Shown: piece by piece, positions 2,490-24,771 of the stretch
How the letters are laid out: the number at the start of each line of letters is the position of its first letter
How positions within the stretch are numbered: position 1 is the first letter of the stretch
IMG/VR virus record: IMGVR_UViG_2547132278_000006
Source: a virus
Lineage: Duplodnaviria > Heunggongvirae > Uroviricota > Caudoviricetes
Reading direction: 5' to 3' (one strand)
DNA length: 24,771 bases
Notes under the pieces: model-generated
Database searches by the model: none
The model's input: only the letters and a program-made list of their open reading frames with translations
Told to the model about the DNA's origin: nothing
Translations under genes and position numbers: made by a program

Positions 2490-3593
2490 TCACACCGCCA
2501 CTGGAACCTTGATCCACGGTAGAGGGGCATAGCCAAGAATAAGAATCTCGTCCCATTTGAAATCATCCAGCTCAGACCATTCATTAGGGAATATAACGAC
2601 CGGATCTGAATGCTCTGGAGCCTGTCGTTGCATTAGCTCACACACACCTTCCATGTGGTTGTTGTACAAATGCACGTCAAAGCCAAAATGCACAAATGCA
2701 CCGGCCATGTGACCCGTAATCTTCGCGAGAAAATGAGTGAGAATGCCATAGCCAGCAATATTGAATGGCATACCAACAAAAGTGTCTACGCTACGCTGTA
2801 CGAGGCAGGAGTTGAGGATGCGTTTGGGGATTCCAAGTTCATCCAGTTCAGTTTCAGTAACACTGCCGTCCATCTCCAGATCGTATAGCATCTTGGTGTA
2901 GATAGACTCATAACCGAGGCGACTGTGTTGAAGACCAATGTCAGTTGCCATCGTTAAACGGGTTTCAAAATCAAGCTCACGACTCCACAAAGAGAAGACA
3001 AAGTGGCAAGGTGGCAGTTTCATATCCTCAAGCTCGCCTACGTTCCATGCGTTAAGCATGATGCGACGATCGGTAGGGTTCGTGCGCAGTGTATCGACAA
3101 TACGCTGTAGCTGATCGATTTCACGGGACAGCACTACGCGATCTTCACTGATACCCAGGTATCCCTCGACTTTGTACCCGCGTAAACGGAAAGTATCGAT
3201 CTTGCTCAGATATTCACTATGGCTCACGATGCGGGTATCTTCCCATCGACGCCACTGCTTACCGTAAACCGGCCCCAAATCGCCATTCTCATCGGCCCAT
3301 GCATCCCAAATCTTAACGCCGTTATCCTTGAGAAATTGGATGTTGCCCGTGCCTTTCAGATACCACTCAAGTTCGACAAGTAGTGGCTTAAGATTTACCG
3401 CCTTTCCAGAAATAAGCGGCACAGTCCCACCAGTAAGCATGTAGTAAGAGGGAACGTAGCAGGTGCTTAAAGTACCAGTGCCTGTGCGATCATCAACCTG
3501 CACGCCGCTTTTAAGCACCGTCTCAATAACTTTTGCATACGATGCGTTTGTTACCTGACCGTTCGTATGCTCACGATTCAAAAGGAGTGACAC
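2490..3593 (-). CDS. thyA: thymidylate synthase (ThyA family), long form with insertions
   Basis: DDRTGTGT, DLGPVYGKQWRRW, RRIMLNAWNVGEL, LPPCH, QRSVDTFVGMPFNIAGY, DVHLYNNH and C-terminal IKVPVAV match ThyA catalytic motifs. The ORF track starts at a GTG at 3620; GTG at 3593 has a GAGG SD 5 nt upstream and is the more likely start. Confidence 0.85.
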   Translation of the reverse strand: MSLLLNREHTNGQVTNASYAKVIETVLKSGVQVDDRTGTGTLSTCYVPSYYMLTGGTVPLISGKAVNLKPLLVELEWYLKGTGNIQFLKDNGVKIWDAWADENGDLGPVYGKQWRRWEDTRIVSHSEYLSKIDTFRLRGYKVEGYLGISEDRVVLSREIDQLQRIVDTLRTNPTDRRIMLNAWNVGELEDMKLPPCHFVFSLWSRELDFETRLTMATDIGLQHSRLGYESIYTKMLYDLEMDGSVTETELDELGIPKRILNSCLVQRSVDTFVGMPFNIAGYGILTHFLAKITGHMAGAFVHFGFDVHLYNNHMEGVCELMQRQAPEHSDPVVIFPNEWSELDDFKWDEILILGYAPLPWIKVPVAV

Positions 3594-3670
3594 AAAAACC
3601 TCACAAAGATAAGTAATCACTTATTCATTGTGTGAGTTTACATTTATTGAGAGAACAAGACCAGATAGAT

Positions 3671-8928: not shown

Positions 8929-9672
8929 TTACCATGTTCCCCATATAGGGTTTTCCAATAATCTCGCCTCCAACGAATTGGCTACTATTGCCGTTTGCAA
9001 CGTTGGTTGGGGATAGTTTGCAAAGTCTGAATACTCATTTTCCTGCGTGACACGTTTATCTGCGGCATGTTTAACACCACTTGCTATGAAATGACGCATG
9101 ATGCCCAACAGCCTCCGACTGTCTGCACTATCGTTTGCTAAAACATGAGGGAGCTGAAGTTCGATTTCTACCATTTCTCCATACTTACCAACAAACTGTA
9201 GTTTGTCCGCACTGTACTTTTTATCCCTCCTTTGGATAAGGAAACCAGTAAAAGCATCACCTGGCGATGCCAAACTATCCACCCGCTTATTGGCAAGTCG
9301 AATAAGGTTCGTGAAAGCCATACAGTGATGCGCACCCATTCCCCCAAAGAACCCTTCGCTATTAATGTTAAGATCTTCAGTTTCATGGGATGCAATAAAC
9401 CCAGGCCCGACGTTGGGAAGATATCCCCCCTCAACAAAAGGATTAATCAGGATCGGCGCAATACATCCAGGTGGTAGTGATTTCAAACTTTGCATCAATG
9501 GCGTCTCGGATATTAGACCAAGCAACGCGGCGAATTGTACTCCGTCAATATTGTTGCTGCCCCACAGAATACGTGGAGCCGCACCATTGGAAGTATGCCC
9601 ATTGATCAGTTTTATCGACTGCATCACTGCAAATACCTGCAAAAACTGCGAGCGACTTAATTTAAACGACAT
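8929..9672 (-). CDS. hypothetical protein (247 aa)
   Basis: Intact ORF between the resolvase and Rad50-like genes; its start overlaps the rad50-like stop by 11 nt; no confident motif. Confidence 0.55.
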   Translation of the reverse strand: MSFKLSRSQFLQVFAVMQSIKLINGHTSNGAAPRILWGSNNIDGVQFAALLGLISETPLMQSLKSLPPGCIAPILINPFVEGGYLPNVGPGFIASHETEDLNINSEGFFGGMGAHHCMAFTNLIRLANKRVDSLASPGDAFTGFLIQRRDKKYSADKLQFVGKYGEMVEIELQLPHVLANDSADSRRLLGIMRHFIASGVKHAADKRVTQENEYSDFANYPQPTLQTAIVANSLEARLLENPIWGTW

Positions 9673-11578
9673 AGCTGCGCCCCTCTTTAACTTCCAGCGT
9701 AATAGTTTCCCGGAACCATGACTTCATCTCTTTATGGGAGATAATCAGCACAGTACCTCGCTCGCGAGCTTTGGACTCCAGAATACCCATGAGGCGTTCA
9801 AGACCGGCTGTATCGAGTGCATCGTCAATTTCGTCGCCGATAAACAAATCGATGTTTTTACTCGCCCGGTTGCTAACCAGATCCTGCAATGCCAAAGAAC
9901 ACGCAATGCGAACCTTCCGCTTCTCACCACCAGAGAGGGTCTGGAACGACTTACTTGAACCTTTCTTCTGCACACTAATGTTGAATTTGTCGCGATACTC
10001 ACCTTTTTTAGTGACATCCATCGTCGACCACTCAGCAGTAATATTCCCGTCAGACAACGTATTGAGATACTCGGCAGTGCGTGTATTCAGGAAAGGCGTA
10101 ACAGACGTCAAAATATGAGAACGCACCCCGGCAGGAGAGTAGACCTGACGAGCTTTTTCCAATAGCAACGTTTGTTCCTGAATAGCCTTCAACTCATCTT
10201 TTAAGGACTTGAAGGTAGACTTACTGGATACCAGGTTATCTTCGTGTCTGGCGATAAGAGCAATAAACGGATTAATCTCTTTTGATATACGATCGACCTC
10301 AGTACGAGCACGAGTCACAAGAGACTCAATAGCAACAACCTCCTTCTCACGATGACGCAAAGATGAGAGTTGTTTCGTAAGCTCTTCAATCCGGGCAATG
10401 ATAGCCGTTACATCAGGTGTCGTTTTAACAAGGGCAGACTCAATGCTTAACGCTTTCTCAAGATTCGTTTTGTGTTTAGCCATTGCCTCTGCAAGTGTCT
10501 TCGCCTGACCAATTTCCTGACGTGCTTGTTCAATGAAATTCTCCTTCACCGTTGATAGATCTTCTTCGCAGTAGGCTTTGCCACAAGTAGGGCATGGTGA
10601 TCCCACTTTAGTACCAACCTCTTCTGCTTTGGTCTTAAAATTACGCGCGCGGTTCATTGCATCAGCCTGACTATTTTCTGTAGCTTTGATGCTTGCCCGA
10701 ATATCAGTTATCGCACCACGAACTTTGAGCAACTTGGCGTCATGTTCTTCTTTTGAGGCTAACTTTTTGCGCTCACTTTCGATTGCCTTCTCGGTATCAC
10801 GGATCTGTTCGGGAAGAGTGCGGATCTCAAGTTCAACTTCCGTTAACTCAACTTCGGCACTGGCCAGCCCAGCCAGGGCATCGTCATAACGTTTAGAACG
10901 CTCTTGCTCCCATGATTCAGAGGAGGCTTTCGCTGACTCAATTTCTGACTGTGTTGCCTCAATGGTCGAGATTGTCGACTCCAATTTGGTTTTAACCACA
11001 TCCATACGTGCGGCAGCTGCATTAGCTCGCTCACGAGCAATAGCGTAGGCGCGTGTCAGTCTGTCAACGCCAGCGGCTTCTTCTACGATGGTTTTGAGGT
11101 TTTTGTCGGACATTCCAGGTAAATCTGGCATAGCTTCTTGGCTCGCATAGATGGAAGCCATGAAAACCTCTTTAGATGCACCGATCAGACGCTCGACGAA
11201 CTCTTGCGTCAGCGCATCTTTGCCTTTCGTCATATCGCCGTCTTCACCACGAACGATAAGCCGATTTTTGAACTCTTTGTGTTTACGGTGACGAATGATC
11301 GCATATCTCTTGCCTTCATCCTCGATGGTTACTGCAACACGACAGTTCTTTTCATGGTCGGTAGACAACACATCGTCACCCTTCACACCATGAGCTGTTT
11401 CGCCATAAAGACACCACATCAGGCTATTCATTAGCGTTGACTTTCCAGAGCCATTACTTGATGCGGAACTATCATCACTATTAACACCCTGAATGAGCAC
11501 TAAACCACGCTGATCTAACTCGACCTCCGCGCTGGCGATAGCCATAAAATTCTCAACCTGGAGCTTTAAAAACTTCAT
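9662..11578 (-). CDS. Rad50/SbcC-like recombination ATPase (T4 gp46-like)
   Basis: Walker A NGSGKSTLMNSL, long coiled-coil region, zinc-hook CPTCG, ABC signature LSGGEKRKV, Walker B/D-loop LFIGDEIDDALD. Confidence 0.85.
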   Translation of the reverse strand: MKFLKLQVENFMAIASAEVELDQRGLVLIQGVNSDDSSASSNGSGKSTLMNSLMWCLYGETAHGVKGDDVLSTDHEKNCRVAVTIEDEGKRYAIIRHRKHKEFKNRLIVRGEDGDMTKGKDALTQEFVERLIGASKEVFMASIYASQEAMPDLPGMSDKNLKTIVEEAAGVDRLTRAYAIARERANAAAARMDVVKTKLESTISTIEATQSEIESAKASSESWEQERSKRYDDALAGLASAEVELTEVELEIRTLPEQIRDTEKAIESERKKLASKEEHDAKLLKVRGAITDIRASIKATENSQADAMNRARNFKTKAEEVGTKVGSPCPTCGKAYCEEDLSTVKENFIEQARQEIGQAKTLAEAMAKHKTNLEKALSIESALVKTTPDVTAIIARIEELTKQLSSLRHREKEVVAIESLVTRARTEVDRISKEINPFIALIARHEDNLVSSKSTFKSLKDELKAIQEQTLLLEKARQVYSPAGVRSHILTSVTPFLNTRTAEYLNTLSDGNITAEWSTMDVTKKGEYRDKFNISVQKKGSSKSFQTLSGGEKRKVRIACSLALQDLVSNRASKNIDLFIGDEIDDALDTAGLERLMGILESKARERGTVLIISHKEMKSWFRETITLEVKEGRSYVV

Positions 11579-12893: not shown

Positions 12894-13147
12894 GTGTTTT
12901 TCCTTTGTGGTTATTTTGATACAAATTTTAAGAGCAATGAGGAGGTAAACAACTATGCATAACGGTATGTTAGGAATGAAACGAGCGTCTTAATATACAA
13001 AATTTATAAGTAAGTATATACCTATTTATTGTGGCGCAACTTTGCTTGTCTGTATGACTAAAAATAAGACAGGATCACTGTAGAACGCTATGAGAGCTAT
13101 TTTGAGGAGGCGTAGATTCTATCTACGCCAATATACGATCTGGAGGG

Positions 13148-13792
13148 TTACAGCGCGTCAGTGGGCTTTTTACGCGCTGCGTTTATGCTTATGACGCCAG
13201 CTTTTGGACGTGGGTCAACAAGGTTAAGCTCTTCTTCGCTGTGGTATTCGAGGTCGAACTCACGTTTTACATGTCTGATGTAGATTGCGGTGAGCAGGCT
13301 ATCTTTGGTCAGAAAGTGTCCGTAGGATTTGCGGATCACTTCTTCTACCTTCTCGATTTTCTCACCACCCATACAGAGATGATTAAACCGGCTGTGTTTC
13401 CGCAACATTTCGTATACTGGGCCTGAGTAAACCTTGTCTACTTTCCCAAAACGGATGATTTTCCCTGTGTCTGCGGATACGAGGCAAATCAGCTTGTCTG
13501 GTGATAAACGATCTCGCCACGTCACACCTGAACGGAGTGTGTTGAAGTAGGGAGCATCCAATCCGATGATCGGTTTACGAAATGCGAGTAATGGAACGTA
13601 CCTGATGCAACTGTTTAAATGAAAATTCACACCAGCCTTATCAAGTTTAATTCTGGTTTCGTAGATCGGGCACTTCGCCGCTATACCGCAGATGTCACAA
13701 AGCAACTTCTGCTTATTCAGGTTGGAATTTGATTCGATAGTGTAGGAGCCGTCTTCAAGACGACGAACCCAGCGCGTGCGTTTTAGATCCAT
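13148..13792 (-). CDS. hypothetical Cys-containing protein, divergent from repA and adjacent to the origin
   Basis: 214-aa ORF with clustered cysteines (LLCDICGIAAKCPIY...NSC); function unknown. Confidence 0.5.
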   Translation of the reverse strand: MDLKRTRWVRRLEDGSYTIESNSNLNKQKLLCDICGIAAKCPIYETRIKLDKAGVNFHLNSCIRYVPLLAFRKPIIGLDAPYFNTLRSGVTWRDRLSPDKLICLVSADTGKIIRFGKVDKVYSGPVYEMLRKHSRFNHLCMGGEKIEKVEEVIRKSYGHFLTKDSLLTAIYIRHVKREFDLEYHSEEELNLVDPRPKAGVISINAARKKPTDAL

Positions 13793-13870
13793 ATGTCATT
13801 TTTCTGTGATTGTTAGCCGAGGCAACGATAACCCACCAGGTGCGCCGAAGGTAGTAAATGCCTGTTTTAA

Positions 13871-13951
13871 TTATTCACATATCCACAGGATAGATCCTAA
13901 TAAAGAGATCCATAGATAGATCCTTATATAGATCAAATAAGATCCCCGATC
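13871..13951. promoter_or_regulatory. oriR-like origin element: tandem DnaA boxes followed by a cluster of six GATC (Dam) sites
   Basis: TTATTCACA (13871-13879) and ATATCCACA (13879-13887) are each 1 mismatch from the DnaA box TTATCCACA. GATC at 13893, 13907, 13919, 13931, 13941 and 13948, i.e. 6 sites in 59 bp within AGATCC-type repeats. Confidence 0.6.
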
Positions 13952-13991
13952 GCTGTAAGCCGCGCCACGCCTGGTCTAAAGTCATGTTCAT

Positions 13992-14093
13992 GTATGCTGT
14001 CAGCGGTAATTGATAGTCTGTCAGCGGTTCACCGTATGCTGCCAACTGTTTTTGGTATTCTGTCAGCGGCAAATCAAGTATGCTGTCAGCGGT
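13992..14093 (+). repeat. origin iterons: 5 direct repeats of a 16-bp unit (GTATGCTGTCAGCGGT) at 21-23 bp spacing
   Basis: Units start at 13992 (perfect), 14013, 14034 (degenerate), 14055 and 14078 (perfect); phased at about 2 helical turns; they end 20 bp before the repA ATG, so they overlap the repA promoter region. Confidence 0.8.
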
Positions 14094-14113
14094 TGAATGA
14101 CAAAGGTGTCCAC

Positions 14114-15208
14114 ATGTCCACAAAAAATAAAAAAGGTAAAAATAACAAAGAAGTAGAAGATAACATCGACAACTTTGAAGAAGGTTCCCTTGAATTGTAC
14201 ACAGGGGAACTTGTCCCTAATAGCAACAATACAGTCCAACCAATTGCGTTGATGCGACTGGGGTTGTTCGTCCCCACGCTTAAGGGAACAAAATACAGTA
14301 AACGTAACAAGCCAAATGAGATCGATGCTTCAAAGGAGCTTGTCCAGCTCGAAGTAGCCCGTTCTGAAGGCTATTCCGATATCAAGATAACCGGTCCTCG
14401 TCTCGACATGGATCATGATTTCAAAACGTGGGTGGGCGTTGTGCGTTCGCTGGCAGAATACGGCGAACCTAACGGTCGTGTCGAGTTAAGCATCACGAAA
14501 TTTGCTAAGTTTTGTGGCTATCCATCGTCACAGATCCGCAAAACACTCCGCGACCGGCTTACAAACAGTCTTTTGAAGATCATGCGTACAACTCTGTCTT
14601 TCCAGAGAACGTATGAAGAAAAGAACGTCGACGGCTCTAACAAGATCTCGCTTCTGATGGTGCACCTCATCAATAGCGTGGACTACAACGAGCAGAAAGA
14701 TACGGTGGTGTTCTATGCAGAACCGAAGCTGGCCGAACTATATCGCTTTGACCATAAGGTTCTTTTGCAGTTAAAGGTTATCAATAAGCTACCACGCAAA
14801 GAAACAGCACAGGCTCTGTACACCTTCATCGAAAGTCTTCCAACCAAGCCTGCGCCGGTATCGCTTGCTCGATTGCGTGCGCGACTCAATTTGAGTAGCA
14901 GGAATGTAAGCTCGCAGAATCAGACTATACGTAACGGCTTAAAAGCTCTCCAAGATTTGGGCTATCTCGAATACAGCGAGATTAAGCGAGGGCGGTCGAT
15001 CTATATCCAGATTCACAGCCGTAATCCAAAACTTAAAGTCGCACCGCCAAAACCTGAAGACATCGAACCCAAAAAACCAGATGAGAAAGCCGGGGAAATT
15101 GATGCTAAACAGAACATTATCAACAAGATAACTGAACTTTCGCAGAATTTGACGCCTGAAAATATCAAGATGATTGAGATCCTTTCCAATAGTCTCAAAC
15201 TGCTTTGA
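14114..15208 (+). CDS. repA: iteron-binding replication initiator (RepA-like), 365 aa
   Basis: The only substantial plus-strand gene; flanked upstream by 5 iterons and downstream by 12. Start taken at ATG 14114 (MSTKNKKGK...); the ORF track's 5' extension to 13994 runs through the iterons. Assignment is mainly contextual (P1/F-type organisation). Confidence 0.7.
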   Translation: MSTKNKKGKNNKEVEDNIDNFEEGSLELYTGELVPNSNNTVQPIALMRLGLFVPTLKGTKYSKRNKPNEIDASKELVQLEVARSEGYSDIKITGPRLDMDHDFKTWVGVVRSLAEYGEPNGRVELSITKFAKFCGYPSSQIRKTLRDRLTNSLLKIMRTTLSFQRTYEEKNVDGSNKISLLMVHLINSVDYNEQKDTVVFYAEPKLAELYRFDHKVLLQLKVINKLPRKETAQALYTFIESLPTKPAPVSLARLRARLNLSSRNVSSQNQTIRNGLKALQDLGYLEYSEIKRGRSIYIQIHSRNPKLKVAPPKPEDIEPKKPDEKAGEIDAKQNIINKITELSQNLTPENIKMIEILSNSLKLL

Positions 15209-15740
15209 TATGCTGTCAGCGGTGAAATGTATGCTATCAGCGGCTATTTTTCTGAAATGTATGCTGTGAACGGTTAAAGATATGCTACCAGCGGTATAGT
15301 GAGATGAACGTATGCTGTGAGCGGTAAATCATCTATCACCACTCAATGCTCTGTCATACCTCCCCAGTGGTTACTAACCTCGAAGAGTGCATTCCATATA
15401 GGTTTGCGCTCACTAACATTCTATTGCTATTGCGCTGATTGCTTGTAGTGAAAGGCATTTATTGCCTGCTGCTCCCTGATAGAACGTATGCTGTCAGCGG
15501 TGTTTTATTGAGGAATTTTTGTTTGGATATGCTATCAGCGGTAATTAATGGTATATGTCAGACCTTCGTATGCTGCCAGCGGTAATTTTGTTCTGGTTAT
15601 ACCCATACCGGTACACATTATTCATGCAATGTCTTAAGTATGCTGCCAGCGGTAAAAAATCGAGTAAAGTATGCTGTGAGCGGTGATATAGACTCTCGAT
15701 ATGCTATCAGCGGTAGTTGATTGTGTATGCTGTCAGCGGT
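15209..15740 (+). repeat. incA-like copy-control array: 12 direct iterons of the same 16-bp unit
   Basis: Units start at 15209, 15230, 15260, 15281, 15311, 15486, 15527, 15568, 15638, 15669, 15699 and 15725, all same orientation; most spacings are about 21, 30-31 or 41 bp (roughly 2, 3 and 4 helical turns), with 26 and 70 bp as exceptions; 0-3 mismatches to consensus; a 160-bp iteron-free spacer at 15327-15485. Confidence 0.8.
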
Positions 15741-18525: not shown

Positions 18526-19599
18526 TTACTCTTCTACTGACTCGGTGGGGTTGTCTTTTGCTCTTCGGTCGTCGATTGCCTGCAAAGCCGCAATGATTTC
18601 AGCCAGTGGCTTCTCCCGATACATCTCGACGATCTGCGATTTGGTGTATTTCTTGTCACCAATTTCAACTCGCCCGCTGGCGTTCTTTGGCAGGTATCCT
18701 TCTTCCAGCATGTACTCGACGAGCGATTCGATAACGTCGAGGCCACGAGTAGGATCGAAGTAGAATTTCCAGGTGCATTTGCCATACGGTGGTGCAACTT
18801 TGTTTTTGATGCATTCTGCGCCTACGTCCTGGCCGATCTTCTCTTTACCATCCTTCATCACCGATGCACCAAGACGGATACGTACAGAAGCGTAGAACTT
18901 CGGTGAATCTCCACCTGGCGACGTAGTAGGGTCGCCAAACATTACACCGATTTTTGTGCGAACCTGATTCAAGAAGATGATGCAGGCGTTGTATTTGCGT
19001 GCCCACAAAGCCAGAGTAGGGAAGTTCGCACTTGTCGCACGAGCCAGTGCCGTATTGTCGTTCATGTTTAGCTGATCTTTGTCTTTGGCAGTGCCTTCAG
19101 CCATCTTTTCGAACTTCTCGGCTTTGGAGTTCGGAACCATAGACGCAAGTGAGTCAGCCACGATACAGATAGGTGCTGATTCAGGGATAAGCTCTTCATC
19201 ACGTACCAATTTAAGTATTGTGCCGATCAACTCTACAGAGTCTTCGAAGGTGTCAGGCTGCTTGTATACCCACTGACCGTCATCCTCATCTGCGTTCAGG
19301 CCATTGGCTACAGCCAGGCCAACGTCAAAACTGTTTTCATGATCGAGGAATACCGCCAGACCATCTTGTTTTTGAGCGGAGATCATCGCTGCTGTTGCAA
19401 GGAACGTTTTCCCTGCACTTGGAGGACCGAATACTTCGACGATACGACCACATGGGAAGCCGCCATCGTAACGACCAGAAATAGCTTTGTTTAACGGTGG
19501 AAAGCCTGTATCAATCCAATGAGTTACTTTCTGAATTTCGTCGTTGCTACCGATTTTCTTTTTCAGAGCAAGTGCCAGTGCGGATTTTCCTTTTGCCAT
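18526..19599 (-). CDS. recA: RecA-family recombinase
   Basis: Walker A GRIVEVFGPPSAGKTFLA; FLNQVRTKIGVMFGDPTTSPGGDSPKFYASVRIRLG is near-identical in pattern to recalled E. coli RecA ([36 protein letters not shown]). Confidence 0.9.
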   Translation of the reverse strand: MAKGKSALALALKKKIGSNDEIQKVTHWIDTGFPPLNKAISGRYDGGFPCGRIVEVFGPPSAGKTFLATAAMISAQKQDGLAVFLDHENSFDVGLAVANGLNADEDDGQWVYKQPDTFEDSVELIGTILKLVRDEELIPESAPICIVADSLASMVPNSKAEKFEKMAEGTAKDKDQLNMNDNTALARATSANFPTLALWARKYNACIIFLNQVRTKIGVMFGDPTTSPGGDSPKFYASVRIRLGASVMKDGKEKIGQDVGAECIKNKVAPPYGKCTWKFYFDPTRGLDVIESLVEYMLEEGYLPKNASGRVEIGDKKYTKSQIVEMYREKPLAEIIAALQAIDDRRAKDNPTESVEE

Positions 19600-19601
19600 G
19601 A

Positions 19602-19874
19602 TCAGGCTCCTTTTGTTTCGTTGATTCGTTTTAAAGCGGCGGATTCATCGAATACAATCGCATCGTGGTTAAGGAGTCTGGATACACGAGCGAGGATTTT
19701 TACGACCTGCTCGCTGACTAATCCAAACTCGCGATCTGTCGCTTTCATTCCGGCAGCGCCTAGAATTGACGGCAGTGCGATGACAGCGTACTCACCGTGA
19801 TAAAAGACAATCTCTTTTGCCAGTTGGGCAGGGGTGGTTGTAGCGCCATTGATAATCGATTTAAGCATTAGCAA
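19602..19874 (-). CDS. hypothetical protein (90 aa)
   Basis: ORF between the FEN and recA-like genes, overlapping the FEN 3' end by 7 nt; no motif. Confidence 0.45.
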   Translation of the reverse strand: MLMLKSIINGATTTPAQLAKEIVFYHGEYAVIALPSILGAAGMKATDREFGLVSEQVVKILARVSRLLNHDAIVFDESAALKRINETKGA

Positions 19875-20812
19875 TACCTTTCGAATGGAAGAACAAACAC
19901 TTCAAGGTCTTCAAGGAACGAACGGAAATTCAGCTCGTAGCACAGTTGCTCGAATGCTTTCACGTCACGATTGCCTTTGATTGTTTCGATTTCGGTAGGC
20001 GGAAACTTCGTCTCAATCAGGTTCATTAGCGTGATGTTTCTCTTGAACGCTTCGAGCATTCGACAGCCTGTTTTCTCGTTGAAGGCATTCTTCGCTAGTT
20101 TGTTGAAGGCGGTCTTATGGCGTCCTTTGTCAACCACGATTGAGCCGTCGTTGATGCCGCGTACCATCGTTGCGACACTTCCCCATTCATGCAGCAGCTC
20201 TTTCGCACCGCCAGCACCAATGCCACCAACACCGCTAATATTGTCCGATTTATCGCCTTGTAATGCTTTTGCTTCCAAAAATGCGCGAGGAGTAGCGAAT
20301 CCTGTCAGCTCCGCAAATTGCTCAAAATTAACCTGCTTGTTTTTGGCGTCTTCGCGCAGGCTTACCCAGCTTACGTTTTCGCGAACTAACTGAAGCCAGT
20401 CGCTATCGCCTGTTAACAGATAGATGTGTTCAACGATTGGCTGCGGTGCAATGCTGGCTACCAGCAGCCCGGCCAGATCATCCGCTTCTGCATCTTTTGC
20501 AATGAGTTGGGTAACTCCAAGCGCGGTCATCATTTTGAGGATGTATGGCTTCTGGATAGCAAAGCCTTCCTTCATCTTTTTCATATCAGGATCGTCGTCG
20601 CGATTTGCTTTGTAGTCCGGGTAAAAGTCGCGACGCTTGTCACTAAATCCATCCCAAAGAATCATAGGTCGGGCATGGAGGATGGAGGCATAACGACGGA
20701 CGTTCTTAACAAAGCCGAAAGCAGCCTGTACTTCCATTTCGCCGTTGTGCAATTTGTCAGATTGTTGGTGGTAATAACCCAGGCTATTGCCATCTACGAA
20801 GAGATAATTCAC
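19868..20812 (-). CDS. flap endonuclease / 5'-3' exonuclease (T5 D15 / T4 RNase H family)
   Basis: YLFVDGNSLGY, AKDAEADDLAGLL, TGDSDWLQLV and H3TH-like GDKSDNISGVGGIGAGGAKELL. Start is uncertain: the ORF track starts at GTG 20863, but that places a strong terminator hairpin inside codons 2-9; GTG at 20812 follows the hairpin and has GGAAGGAA upstream, so it is preferred here. Confidence 0.85.
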   Translation of the reverse strand: MNYLFVDGNSLGYYHQQSDKLHNGEMEVQAAFGFVKNVRRYASILHARPMILWDGFSDKRRDFYPDYKANRDDDPDMKKMKEGFAIQKPYILKMMTALGVTQLIAKDAEADDLAGLLVASIAPQPIVEHIYLLTGDSDWLQLVRENVSWVSLREDAKNKQVNFEQFAELTGFATPRAFLEAKALQGDKSDNISGVGGIGAGGAKELLHEWGSVATMVRGINDGSIVVDKGRHKTAFNKLAKNAFNEKTGCRMLEAFKRNITLMNLIETKFPPTEIETIKGNRDVKAFEQLCYELNFRSFLEDLEVFVLPFERYC

Positions 20813-20825
20813 CGGTACATTCCTT

Positions 20826-20858
20826 CCAAAAAGTAAGGCGTCCGTAGACGCCTTACTG
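20826..20858 (-). terminator. rho-independent terminator downstream of the SSB gene
   Basis: Minus strand: GTAAGGCGTC-TACG-GACGCCTTAC followed by TTTTTGG; 15 nt after the SSB stop; shares the AAGGCGTC/GACGCCTT stem core with the terminators at 17357 and 18493. Confidence 0.55.
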
Positions 20859-20872
20859 GTCACGTAATGGGA

Positions 20873-21901
20873 TTACAGAGAGTCCAGCTCTCTCAGTAGG
20901 TCATCCAGACCTTCATCTTCCGTCGCAGATGCGGCTGCTACAGATGTCGCTGCGACTGCTTCAGACTCTTTGACTGATACTGCAACGGCAGCGGGACTTG
21001 CTTCTGGTTTAAATTCAGTTTCAACGGCACGGAGGATTTCTTCATCAACCAGACTGGTTGGTTCAGAAGCTGGGGTATGAGCGGTAGCTACAGCAGTCGC
21101 ACCCTCCGTATGACCAGTGACAGAGCCAAATCCAGGTAGTGCCGCAGCCGATGTTTTCGCGGTTGAGGAAATTGCTGGTGCAGATGCTGCGGCAGTTGGT
21201 GCAGCGATGCCAATCAGACGACCCATAGTGCGAACTGTCGACAGAAGACGAGTTTCATCAGCTTGATTTGCGTATGCGATCAGATCATGCTGGGTATTCC
21301 AGAATTTATCTTCGATATCGCCTTTGTAGACTTTACGCTTAGGCGAGACGTCATATTTGGTATCGCGACCAGAGCCAGTACGTTTAATCAGGAATGCGTA
21401 GCCTTCCTCTTTGCTCAGTGGATTGCCGATATCATCAGCGATGTCTTCGGTGATTGCTTTGCAGATATCATCGAATACAGTAGACGGCAGCTCGATTAAC
21501 TGGCATTTCTCAGCATCTGCGAAATCCTCACGAGCAGAAAGAATGCCGTTGACCAGGTAGCGAGGAGTGGCACGCATTTGACCGATGCGTTCTTCCATTG
21601 CTTTGTTACCCTTGTGACGAGCGCGACCTTCCATCACCATTTCGCATAGCTGACAAGCGCGACCGTGAGTATGTTGCTCACAAATATAAGCGTTGGTTGC
21701 TTCTTTACCTTCCTCGTTCTGATACTTAACGTAGTGCATACCGAAAGTCTGGAAGAACTTACCGTTTGGGTCGTCTTTATTCGGGAAGATGCGGATATAG
21801 TTGACGCCGTCTTTTAAGCGAGTCAGATCAACGTTGTTACCACGTTTGGCGGCAATGTCTTCACGAGTTTTGTTAAGCAAATCAAGTAATGTCTTAGACA
21901 T
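20873..21901 (-). CDS. gp32-like single-stranded DNA-binding protein
   Basis: IRIFPNKDD matches T4 gp32 IRFLPSKND; Zn-ligand pattern H...C...C-x2-C (CEQHTHGRACQLCEM); Ala/Thr/Ser-rich low-complexity linker; acidic C-terminal tail (EDEGLDDLLRELDSL, compare gp32 DDIDNLLNEI). Confidence 0.75.
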   Translation of the reverse strand: MSKTLLDLLNKTREDIAAKRGNNVDLTRLKDGVNYIRIFPNKDDPNGKFFQTFGMHYVKYQNEEGKEATNAYICEQHTHGRACQLCEMVMEGRARHKGNKAMEERIGQMRATPRYLVNGILSAREDFADAEKCQLIELPSTVFDDICKAITEDIADDIGNPLSKEEGYAFLIKRTGSGRDTKYDVSPKRKVYKGDIEDKFWNTQHDLIAYANQADETRLLSTVRTMGRLIGIAAPTAAASAPAISSTAKTSAAALPGFGSVTGHTEGATAVATAHTPASEPTSLVDEEILRAVETEFKPEASPAAVAVSVKESEAVAATSVAAASATEDEGLDDLLRELDSL

Positions 21902-22575: not shown

Positions 22576-24485
22576 TCACGACTTAATAGTTTCTGCTACG
22601 TCGGCTAATATCGCTTCTAGTCGTTCTCCCTCTTCAGGTCTGAAGTAAAGAATGTTGGGGTTAAACCCGTAAAAGACAGTAACGTCAAGGTCTGGAAGAT
22701 ACTCCTTCCTGCCGACCAAATCGGATGGCTTGTTTTTGTTGTTAAACAATGCCGTTGCCCGGCTGCCACACGTCAGCACATAGGTCGGACGCACCAGATT
22801 GATCTCTTCACGTATAAAGTCGGTGAACTGGCCGATCTCGTCTTTGGTGTAGTCTTTTTCTTTGTCTTTAACCTTCTTGCAAACGCCTGTGACATAGAGA
22901 TCGCCCATGCGTAAATCTCCAGCCGTCAATAGCTTGGCCTTAAAGTCGTCGTATCCGTTCTCCATAAAGTAACCGGTTCGAGCATCATTGCCGTTCGCAT
23001 TGTCCAGAATGATCATGATTTTCGGCTTAATACCAATGCTGGGGCGGATTAGTTCATCACCTAAGCCCATTTCAGCCGCCATCCGCGTCATGAGTACGTT
23101 AATTTCAGCCGAACGTTTGGGGTTCATCTCAAACGGACGTGAGGCTTTAACTGCGTCTATGACAAGGTTTCCCATCAATTCAGCCTGGTCGCGTAGGCGC
23201 TCTGGATCAGTTGCTGGCAGACTGCCTGGCTCGATGGATGCAAACGCCCCTACTTTTTGCAGCGATTCGCGCACTCGACTATTACAGGCACGTTTCTCGA
23301 CAGCTTCTTCGAATTGCGCCAGTGACTCGAATTTGCCGCCAACTTTTTCTCGCGCTCTCATGATGGCTTGGCAGCCATTCTCAGAACACCCCTTCACAGC
23401 AGAGAAGGGCGCATACAGCACCTGGCTGCCATCTTCAAGCGTGCGGATCTCGATTCGGTTAGATGACACGTTAACGTCTGGTGGCAATACGCGAATGCCA
23501 TAGGTCAGCGCATCTTTAACCAGCCCCTGGTGTTTATCTTCGCCAAGAATAGTGAGAGCAGCAGCGAAAAACTCTGCGGGATAATGAGTTTTCAACCACA
23601 TAGATTGATAACTGATTAAGGAGTAAGCAACAGAGTGTGATTTGTTGAACTGGTAGGCACCATTCTTTTCGAATGCGGTCCAGATCTCCTTCGCTTTCAT
23701 CTCTGATAGCCCTGGATGTGACGCTGTAACGCGTACTGCGTTTATAGGTAGTTTTGCGCCGTACTCAAGTGCCTCTTCGACAGTTTTCAGAGTTCCGTCT
23801 TCGCATTTAAAATGTTCCGCACGGTGAATGCGCTGTGTAGTGCCATCTTCCAGCTCAACGTCTATCCAGCCAGCTTGAGCCTGAACGATGAACTTCTCGC
23901 CCATGCTCTTCATTTTTTCCATGTCTTTTTTGCCGATCGCTTTACGAACGCCGTCAGCTTCAGCCATTGTGAAGCCAGCAAGCAATCGAGTCGCGTTCAT
24001 CGTCTGTTCCTGATAGAGAATCACGCCATTTGTTTCTGCGGTAAGTTCATCAAGAACGGGGTGTAATGATTCCGGCGTCATAAAGCCTTTGGCTACAGAA
24101 ACATAGTCATCCAACATGCCTGACTGAATTGGCCCCGGCCGGAAGAGCGCAGTCGTAGCAACAACCGTTTTAAAGCTCATTGGCTCAATTCCACCACCTA
24201 AATCTTTAAGCAGCTTGCGCATTGGGCCTGATTCAAGCTGGAAAACACCTTGAGTGTACCCAGCAGCAAAACCATCCAGCACCTTGCGATCTTCAAGAGA
24301 AATGGCATCAAGATTGATATCTTCACCTGTGTTCTCTTTTATGTAGCGTTTTGCACTATCGAGCAAATCGAGAGTTGCCAGGCCAAGCACGTCCAGCTTA
24401 ATTAGGCCCATAGCCTCGCAGTAACGCTTGTCAAATGCGATACAACGCGCGTCACCACGGCGCTCAACCGGTGTACGTTCTGTCA
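22576..24485 (-). CDS. dnaE: DnaE-type (Pol III alpha-like, family C) DNA polymerase, 5'-truncated at the IS junction; C-terminal uracil-DNA-glycosylase-family-4-like domain
   Basis: IAFDKRYCEAMGLIKLDVLGL, GVFQLESGPM, ALFRPGPIQSGM, GVILYQEQ and FNKSHSVAYSLISYQSMWLKTHYPAEFFAAALT match the E. coli DnaE palm/fingers from about residue 530 onward; the first ~500 residues are missing. The ORF-track 'start' at 24513 lies inside the IS terminal repeat (IS end at 24486), so the first 9 codons are IS-derived. Confidence 0.75.

Positions 24486-24771
<286 letters not shown>

Follow-up and report, generated by a model that had tools for sequence, protein, structure and literature searches.

Gene organization of the locus

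We describe here an open reading frame (ORF) that lies beside a plasmid replication origin in viral DNA, within a window, the whole stretch analyzed, of 24,771 nucleotides (IMG/VR virus record IMGVR_UViG_2547132278_000006). Over the 2.4 kb around the ORF, identity is 99-99.8% to many plasmids of ~110 kb from E. coli and Shigella and 98.8% to Escherichia phage PhiR41_1, and the ORF part of the region also matches phages Cyrano (92%) and SSU5 (77%). Because of these matches we take the window to be part of an SSU5-like E. coli phage-plasmid. The genes that frame the ORF are as follows.

22576-24513, minus strand: Pol III alpha
20873-21901, minus strand: gp32-like SSB
19868-20863, minus strand: 5'-3' exonuclease
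18526-19599, minus strand: RecA-like recombinase (Pfam RecA, 2e-42)
13148-13792, minus strand: Cys4-ASCH-like ORF, 214 aa
11808-12893, minus strand: SbcD/Mre11-like metallophosphoesterase, the next gene downstream of the ORF (Pfam Metallophos, phrog_100)
9662-11578, minus strand: SbcC/Rad50-like ATPase (Pfam AAA_23 and SMC_N, phrog_77)

Beyond the SbcC-like gene the minus strand continues with a hypothetical gene and genes for a RuvC-like protein, the RNR alpha and beta subunits, a MazG-like protein and thymidylate synthase, and then with those for a HAD phosphatase, DHFR and a kinase-like protein. Between RecA and the ORF the window holds ~4.7 kb of plasmid and accessory DNA, in which an SPFH protein, a DUF7238 protein and several small ORFs are encoded on the minus strand between RecA and the origin and repA.

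The ORF starts with ATG, and its product matches phrog_2105 end to end (E 5e-132), a group whose function PHROG lists as unknown; RefSeq labels the product (WP_000364573-like) a 'hypothetical protein'. The dN/dS ratio is 0.056 against SSU5 and 0.016 against Cyrano, and strong purifying selection acts on the ORF. A spurious overprint was considered and is ruled out by these values of 0.02-0.06. By tblastn, at least 837 sequenced enterobacterial plasmids carry the gene, annotated almost everywhere as 'hypothetical protein', and among the carriers are resistance-spreading phage-plasmids of the SSU5 and pHCM2 type as well as plasmids of Y. pestis. At 52-99% identity, the close homologues are without exception from phage-plasmids of enterobacteria. 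Homologues are present in 63 Yersinia records, and the Y. pestis plasmids H170-H172 (about 96-101 kb) have an intact copy at 85% identity.

A family with four invariant cysteines

An earlier note on this DNA had drawn attention to a C-x2-C-x5-C motif in the 214-residue product and to further cysteines and histidines, and had suggested that the cluster could bind a metal. The motif is present and reads L-C32-D-I-C35-G-I-A-A-K-C41, with additional cysteines at positions 62, 103 and 140 and histidines at 58, 133, 138, 159, 174 and 184. An exhaustive profile search collected 312 representative clusters (50% identity) at E<=1e-3, mostly of 170-200 aa, with matches that span both the cysteine region and the C-terminal domain; a word-indexed homologue search with the family profile recovered few distant members. 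We aligned 135 homologues of this family, which has diverged to ~25% identity (mean column identity 23%). Six residues are invariant in all 135 (C32, C35, C41, C62, R87 and H138), and F71, G77, N84, T85, G89, W92, R95, V118, N137 and G158 are at least 90% conserved, giving a family signature of N84-T85-x-R87, H133-x3-N137-H138 and Y157-G158. The proteins are basic, with a median pI of 9.2 and a pI above 8 in 87% of members. Combining conservation with the structural comparisons below, we divide the ORF product into these parts.

13601-13792, minus strand: N-terminal basic Cys4 module, residues 1-64
13697-13699, minus strand: codon of putative metal ligand C32
13688-13690, minus strand: codon of putative metal ligand C35
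13670-13672, minus strand: codon of putative metal ligand C41
13607-13609, minus strand: codon of putative metal ligand C62
13262-13600, minus strand: ASCH/PUA-like beta-barrel core, residues 65-177 (from Foldseek and conservation)
13151-13261, minus strand: acidic C-terminal tail, residues 178-214 (pLDDT 54-72, low confidence)

The four cysteines of the N-terminal module follow the spacing C-x2-C-x(4-12, mostly 5)-C-x(7-26)-C across the family, whereas C103, C140 and H184 are conserved among close relatives only. That the four are retained in every aligned homologue despite such divergence argues that the motif is not a chance occurrence, and the four-cysteine metal site proposed in the earlier note is, at the level of sequence, well supported. 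The acidic tail is specific to the enterobacterial phage-plasmid clade; the majority of the distant members, at 170-200 aa, lack it and match only to about residue 175.

The nature of the metal center can be framed by comparison with known clusters. The C-x2-C-x5-C spacing matches the core of the [4Fe-4S] motifs of endonuclease III/MutY and of WhiB-like proteins, but the fourth cysteine lies C-terminal to that core here (x7-26) and not N-terminal to it, and the Pfam models EndIII_4Fe-2S, WhiB and Fer4 match at noise level (at most two of the 135 members, E>=0.036). A CxxCG knuckle with a cysteine after it at a helix N-terminus would suit a structural zinc site as well as a [4Fe-4S] cluster. 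A classical two-knuckle zinc ribbon was ruled out, as a single CxxC is present.

A predicted ASCH/PUA-like fold with a distinctive pocket

Scans of the ORF protein returned no Pfam family at E<=1, no NCBIfam match and no PADLOC defense family at E<=10, and a sequence search of the PDB gave noise only; the family profile searched against the PDB gave a sub-threshold match to YqfB and nothing else. AlphaFold2 supplied with 20 close homologues modeled residues 65-177 and not residues 1-64, and it was rerun with the 135 diverse sequences, upon which the whole protein was modeled with a pLDDT of 88.9 and a pTM of 0.80. Local pLDDT is 93-98 over residues 65-170 and 89-96 in the Cys4 module, with a dip to 63 at residues 21-30.

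The top Foldseek matches of the model in the PDB are the ASCH proteins EF3133, PH0355, ZmASCH and YqfB, each with probability 1.0, and the Foldseek alignment with YqfB extends over 110 columns with an rmsd of 2.4 Å and a TM-score of 0.79 (normalized to YqfB). Proteins named 'ASCH domain-containing' also head the matches among viral models (BFVD), and there are weaker matches to the McrB N-domain and to SRA domains (E 0.05-1). At the sequence level the Pfam ASCH model (PF04266) finds weak matches in six of the 135 homologues (best E 1.1e-4), the ORF protein itself scoring below the gathering threshold, and the orthologue in the Cyrano record already bears the name 'ASCH RNA-binding domain containing protein'. 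We conclude from the models that the protein is predicted to have an ASCH/PUA-like fold, and that its family, which is uncharacterized and has no Pfam model, is a new variant of that fold. Nothing on the family turned up in literature searches that combined ASCH with SSU5, SbcCD or phage recombination.

Comparison with the ASCH superfamily (YqfB, ZmASCH, PH0355 and EF3133) shows both what is shared and what has been replaced. Shared are the barrel and the small basic character of the protein and, by motif pattern and a weak alignment, a Thr-x-Arg like that of the YqfB-type octapeptide and a histidine like His70 of YqfB. In the ORF family, however, the glycine and lysine of the octapeptide would be lost and the acidic glutamate replaced by Asn-His, the Cys4 module has no counterpart in the matched ASCH structures, and the gene keeps a fixed place between RecA and SbcD. 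In the core the conserved residues are F71, G77, N84-T85-x-R87, G89, W92, R95, H133, N137-H138 and Y157-G158, and T85 and R87 are found in 134 and 135 of the 135 homologues respectively.

A reading that has to be weighed is that the protein is a stand-alone ASCH-type enzyme acting on a modified nucleoside or nucleotide or on an RNA or DNA base, with T85 as nucleophile, R87 forming the oxyanion hole and N137/H138 taking the place of the acid, and serving in salvage or host takeover; its slot between RecA and SbcD would then reflect inherited gene order only. The nearest structures include the ac4C amidohydrolase YqfB and the ribonuclease ZmASCH, and one study found removal of ac4C from tRNA by each of the 19 ASCH proteins that it tested. 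By motif pattern T85 and R87 are the counterparts of Thr24 and Arg26 of YqfB, whose essential residues are Lys21, Thr24 and Arg26, with Glu74 also important (PMC6972931), and H133 and N137 would correspond to His70 and Glu74; these equivalences come from a weak HMMER alignment (E 0.7) and from motif pattern, not from superposed coordinates. The same comparison also weighs against an enzyme of this kind. The octapeptide lysine, essential in YqfB and likewise in TthASCH, EOLA1 and TRIP4, falls at position 82, which in a register set by the motif pattern is lysine in nine of the 135 homologues, the glycine position being mostly a gap, and the position of Glu74 is asparagine in 134 of the 135, followed by the invariant histidine. 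Judged by the YqfB-type arrangement (a lysine, a Thr/Glu nucleophile plus acid, and an arginine oxyanion hole), the threonine and arginine are kept, the lysine is not conserved and the acid aligns with N137; we therefore regard the protein as a member of the fold superfamily that fails the test for a YqfB-type deacetylase. The strongly conserved pocket could catalyze a reaction of another chemistry, or it could serve to bind a ligand. With the genomic evidence considered below, we hold the enzymatic reading to be possible but unlikely; were it correct, ASCH chemistry would extend beyond lysine-dependent deacetylases.

Alternatively, the protein may be a reader of bases that carry a modification or damage, a function known from SRA, EVE, YTH and some ASCH domains, and so mark phage or host DNA, for example in anti-defense or in the degradation of host DNA. 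Binding of modified bases is common among PUA/ASCH-superfamily domains (PMC7641849), and the weaker structural matches include the modified-DNA-binding N-domain of S. marinus McrB in addition to SRA domains. Those matches are, however, weak, the PADLOC scan was without a match and no DNA-modification genes were seen in the window, and we find a reader of this type distinctly improbable. Under any of these readings the searches define an ASCH-like family with an invariant Cys4 site and a distinctive T-x-R/N-H pocket.

Conserved position between RecA and SbcD

The genomic context of the family was examined with two motif-defined sub-alignments in locus scans, two of IMG/VR and one of GTDB genomes, which contributed 44 more loci. 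The 52 loci tabulated comprise three from SSU5-like phage-plasmids and 49 others from phages and metagenomes. RecA lies upstream of the homologue on the same strand in all 49 loci outside the SSU5-like group, and in 44 of them that strand continues downstream with SbcD and then SbcC, the other five contigs ending within 3.5 kb. A RepA homologue stands beside the ORF homologue in the three SSU5-like loci and in none of the 49. Two distant metagenome members (25-31% identity) show the order in full, with Pol III alpha-UDG, gp32, 5'-3' exonuclease, RecA, homologue, SbcD and SbcC, and further downstream in distant loci there is either a RuvC-like gene (L005 and L006) or RNR (L004). The same order, again with no RepA homologue beside the gene, is seen in two cultured Nickievirus phages, hairong and Nican01, which have linear records of 112 kb.

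The spacing within this block varies with the form of the protein. Median gaps between RecA and the homologue range from 46 to 422 bp in distant loci, and in L005 and L021 the stop of the homologue touches or overlaps the start of SbcD. The Cys4 module is missing in about half of the distant homologues: among 40 distinct proteins, 20 carry it and 20 are core-only (114-133 aa). For the 20 Cys4-bearing homologues the median distance to SbcD is 97 bp, and they keep close to it also where 2.5-4 kb separate them from RecA; the core-only homologues follow RecA at a median of 46 bp and precede SbcD by a median of 1.2 kb. Seven Cys-less loci were searched for a Cys4 module encoded as its own ORF, and none turned up; the genes in between are cell-wall hydrolase-like, HNH-like or ORFs of unknown type.

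In the window the spacer between the ORF and sbcD is 254 bp, and no minus-strand terminator-like site is predicted within it; no sigma-70-like promoter was found upstream of the ORF. A perfect 8-bp hairpin (GGCGTAGA-TTCTA-TCTACGCC) lies at 13109-13130, just 3' of the ORF stop, and, lacking a U-run on either strand, it does not qualify as a canonical terminator. The corresponding spacer of SSU5 holds two extra unrelated genes, for a GNAT acetyltransferase and a hypothetical protein.

Three comparisons qualify what the synteny may mean. Rhizobium phage RHEph10, a related phage of ~115 kb, has in the RecA-SbcD slot a canonical ASCH protein, gp056 (L055 3918-4427), which matches the Pfam ASCH model above the gathering score. 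It shares the slot and the fold class with the ORF family, but it has the GxKxxExR motif, lacks the Cys4 module and has no detectable profile similarity to the family (hhalign probability 0.5%). An ASCH-fold protein thus recurs at this position, here by an unrelated member of the fold. Conversely, the SbcCD operons of Herelleviridae have no such gene. Third, gp15 of PhiJL001 is a distant relative of the core (hhalign probability 90.8%) and lies between RNR and a MazZ-like dATP/dGTP diphosphohydrolase (pyrophosphohydrolase; gp15-gp16, L053 10494-11507), with neither RecA nor SbcCD annotated in the 25 kb read. This context within a block of nucleotide-metabolism and DNA-modification genes is a point in favor of an enzymatic, nucleotide-related role, as is the continuation of the block in the window into genes for RNR, MazG-like protein, ThyA and DHFR. 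Genes close to PhiJL001 gp15 are also annotated as a glucosyltransferase, a thymidylate synthase like the SPO1 deoxyuridylate hydroxymethylase and a dCMP deaminase, and from these annotations the surroundings look like a DNA-modification module. Finally, all the loci that share this gene order come from one broad phage lineage in which the whole block is collinear, so the gene order could reflect descent rather than partnership.

The replicon is separable from the ORF

On the other side of the ORF lies the plasmid replicon, with these features.

13864-15250, plus strand: portable ori-repA cassette, ORF not included (borders by homology to IncF plasmids)
13871-13879: DnaA-box-like 9-mer TTATTCACA, one mismatch
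13879-13887: DnaA-box-like 9-mer ATATCCACA, one mismatch
~13889-13975: GATC-rich, AT-rich stretch
13996-14093: five TGCTGTCAGCGG iterons, just upstream of repA
14114-15208, plus strand: repA (Rep3 family), most likely extent

DnaA boxes with one mismatch are not enriched across the window (9 found, 5.8 expected), and the two listed here adjoin the GATC-rich stretch, which is followed by the iterons, in an arrangement that we take to resemble the P1 oriR. RefSeq gives RepA (as 'RepB family initiator') 404 residues from 13994, so that its coding sequence crosses all five iterons, and a 364-residue RepA from 14114 is annotated in PhiR41_1 and in an E. albertii plasmid; we consider the start at 14114 more plausible than the 404-residue form.

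The earlier note had the ORF ending about 80 bp from the DnaA boxes and reasoned, from its divergence from repA beside an iteron origin, that it might encode an accessory factor of replication or partition or a regulator that binds the origin. The distance is right (78 bp), but the high-coordinate end that faces the boxes is the start codon and not the stop. The proximity has some appeal, as SSU5, Cyrano and PhiR41_1 share the arrangement, the protein is basic and the divergent promoter region of the ORF must abut the origin. Several observations nonetheless argue against such a role. The lack of RepA at all 49 loci outside the phage-plasmids, where RecA is upstream instead, is one. Another is that the IncF-type plasmids pCFSAN004177P_01 and CP099079.1 carry the cassette at 80% identity (L061 4001-5401 and L062 4001-5407; MOB-suite rep_cluster_488), with homology that starts exactly at 13864 and ends near 15250, flanked in both by transposase or IS genes and with no homologue of the ORF beside it; both plasmids carry several replicons, so that this copy need not drive their replication. 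These sharp borders in plasmids lacking the ORF indicate that the replicon is a portable cassette that excludes it. Third, codon 8 of the ORF is interrupted in pSLy3 (NZ_CP015915.1) by an IS91-family element of ~1.7 kb (L060 2371-4053), with a 5-bp target duplication, GAACC, corresponding to window positions 13765-13769. The insertion separates the ORF from its native start codon and upstream region, and the plasmid (114 kb) persists with the same replicon. RefSeq still annotates a 214-residue coding sequence in pSLy3, with a non-ATG start and its first eight residues derived from the IS element.

The same gene also stands beside two types of iteron and RepA specificity. The DnaA-box/GATC block next to the ORF is conserved in the window, Cyrano and SSU5, whereas the iterons and RepA of Cyrano and SSU5 are of a different type from those of the window. 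The spacer between the ORF and repA is 743 bp long in both Cyrano (L001 6894-7636) and SSU5 (L002 6636-7379) and contains there, twice in succession, a set made up of DnaA box, GATC-rich repeats and CCACTATAGAGAG-type iterons, while the window has one set with different iterons. Lastly, the predicted ASCH/PUA-like fold is unlike those of known origin binders, and no HTH, RHH or ParB-like fold is matched in the ORF protein by Pfam, NCBIfam or PHROG. The profile and structure searches that the earlier note had proposed turned up no family or fold of a known origin factor. From these comparisons of sequence and context the origin-accessory reading appears largely refuted, and we consider it very unlikely indeed.

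Comparison with the non-plasmid phages suggests how the present arrangement arose. The ori-repA cassette of the SSU5-like phage-plasmids, together with some accessory genes, would have entered between RecA and the ORF, the inserted ~4.7 kb comprising the SPFH gene, the DUF7238 gene, small ORFs, repA and the origin, and this insertion would be the only reason for the place of the ORF beside the origin. Its placement in a recombination module corrects a tempting guilt-by-association error at iteron origins, and the delimitation of the true portable replicon should be useful for replicon typing and for building mini-replicons.

A proposed role in phage recombination

We favor the view that the ORF encodes a nucleic-acid-binding, possibly hydrolytic, accessory protein of the phage recombination and replication module that acts with RecA and SbcCD in the lytic cycle, and put the probability of this at about one half. 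Nucleic-acid binding, cooperation with RecA and SbcCD and a lytic-cycle role are what we infer from the fold and from gene order in one broad phage lineage. The gene belongs to a replication and recombination block of a lineage of ~100-120 kb tailed phages, in the order Pol III alpha, gp32, 5'-3' exonuclease, RecA, ORF, SbcD, SbcC, RuvC-like and RNR, its adjacency to the origin being secondary. In this model the protein is small and basic and has two parts. The N-terminal module would hold one metal center through its four invariant cysteines and stabilize an extra surface for binding nucleic acid or a partner, and the C-terminal barrel would present a pocket lined by T85, R87, H133, N137, H138 and Y157. 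The barrel may bind nucleic acid that is single-stranded or structured or, at a DNA end, a base that is flipped or modified, and could thereby assist or direct RecA and the Mre11-Rad50-like SbcCD in recombination-dependent replication during the lytic cycle.

In favor of this proposal we count the fold, the metal site, the basic pI, the RecA-SbcD synteny, the occupancy of the slot in RHEph10, the lack of a predicted terminator before SbcD and the independence from the replicon. Against it we count the collinearity of a single lineage, the Herelleviridae without the gene, the context of PhiJL001 gp15, the two genes that separate the ORF from SbcD in SSU5 and the lack of a sigma-70-like promoter upstream. 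CYRAN_64 is absent from the lysogeny-expressed genes listed for LF82, which is compatible with a lytic-cycle role and is no proof of one.

There are parallels in other systems. Like Nbs1, CtIP/Sae2, T4 UvsY and RecO/RecR, this is a small protein encoded with a recombinase and a Mre11-Rad50-like nuclease, an analogy in which the functional link comes from gene order, as no sequence or fold similarity to these proteins was found. RecR and RecO carry Cys4 zinc fingers, a further parallel by analogy to the putative metal site of the ORF protein. A bolder form of the proposal, which we consider speculative and on balance unlikely, is that the Cys4-ASCH protein is a previously unrecognized, dedicated cofactor of the viral Mre11-Rad50-like SbcCD and of RecA, a counterpart of Nbs1/CtIP or of a mediator, whose PUA-like base-flipping pocket, perhaps with a redox-active [4Fe-4S] cluster, recognizes DNA ends or lesions and licenses resection for recombination-dependent replication. 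If the protein does work with the SbcCD-like nuclease, the universally conserved machinery for processing DNA ends would gain an accessory factor of a new kind.

Other features of the gene block

Several neighboring genes have unusual architectures in this lineage. The window RecA is 357 residues long and matches the Pfam RecA model only; in several relatives RecA contains an intein with a LAGLIDADG homing endonuclease (L005 5138-7468), and the Cyrano RecA (L001 11921-13063+) is annotated as 780 residues. Pol III alpha of the lineage carries a uracil-DNA glycosylase-like domain (PF03167; L004 1030-4410 and L005 1-2577). The thymidylate synthase ORF of the window (2490-3620) encodes 376 residues, of which two separate stretches match the Pfam model, and this sequence suggests either an insertion in the enzyme or an over-extended start.
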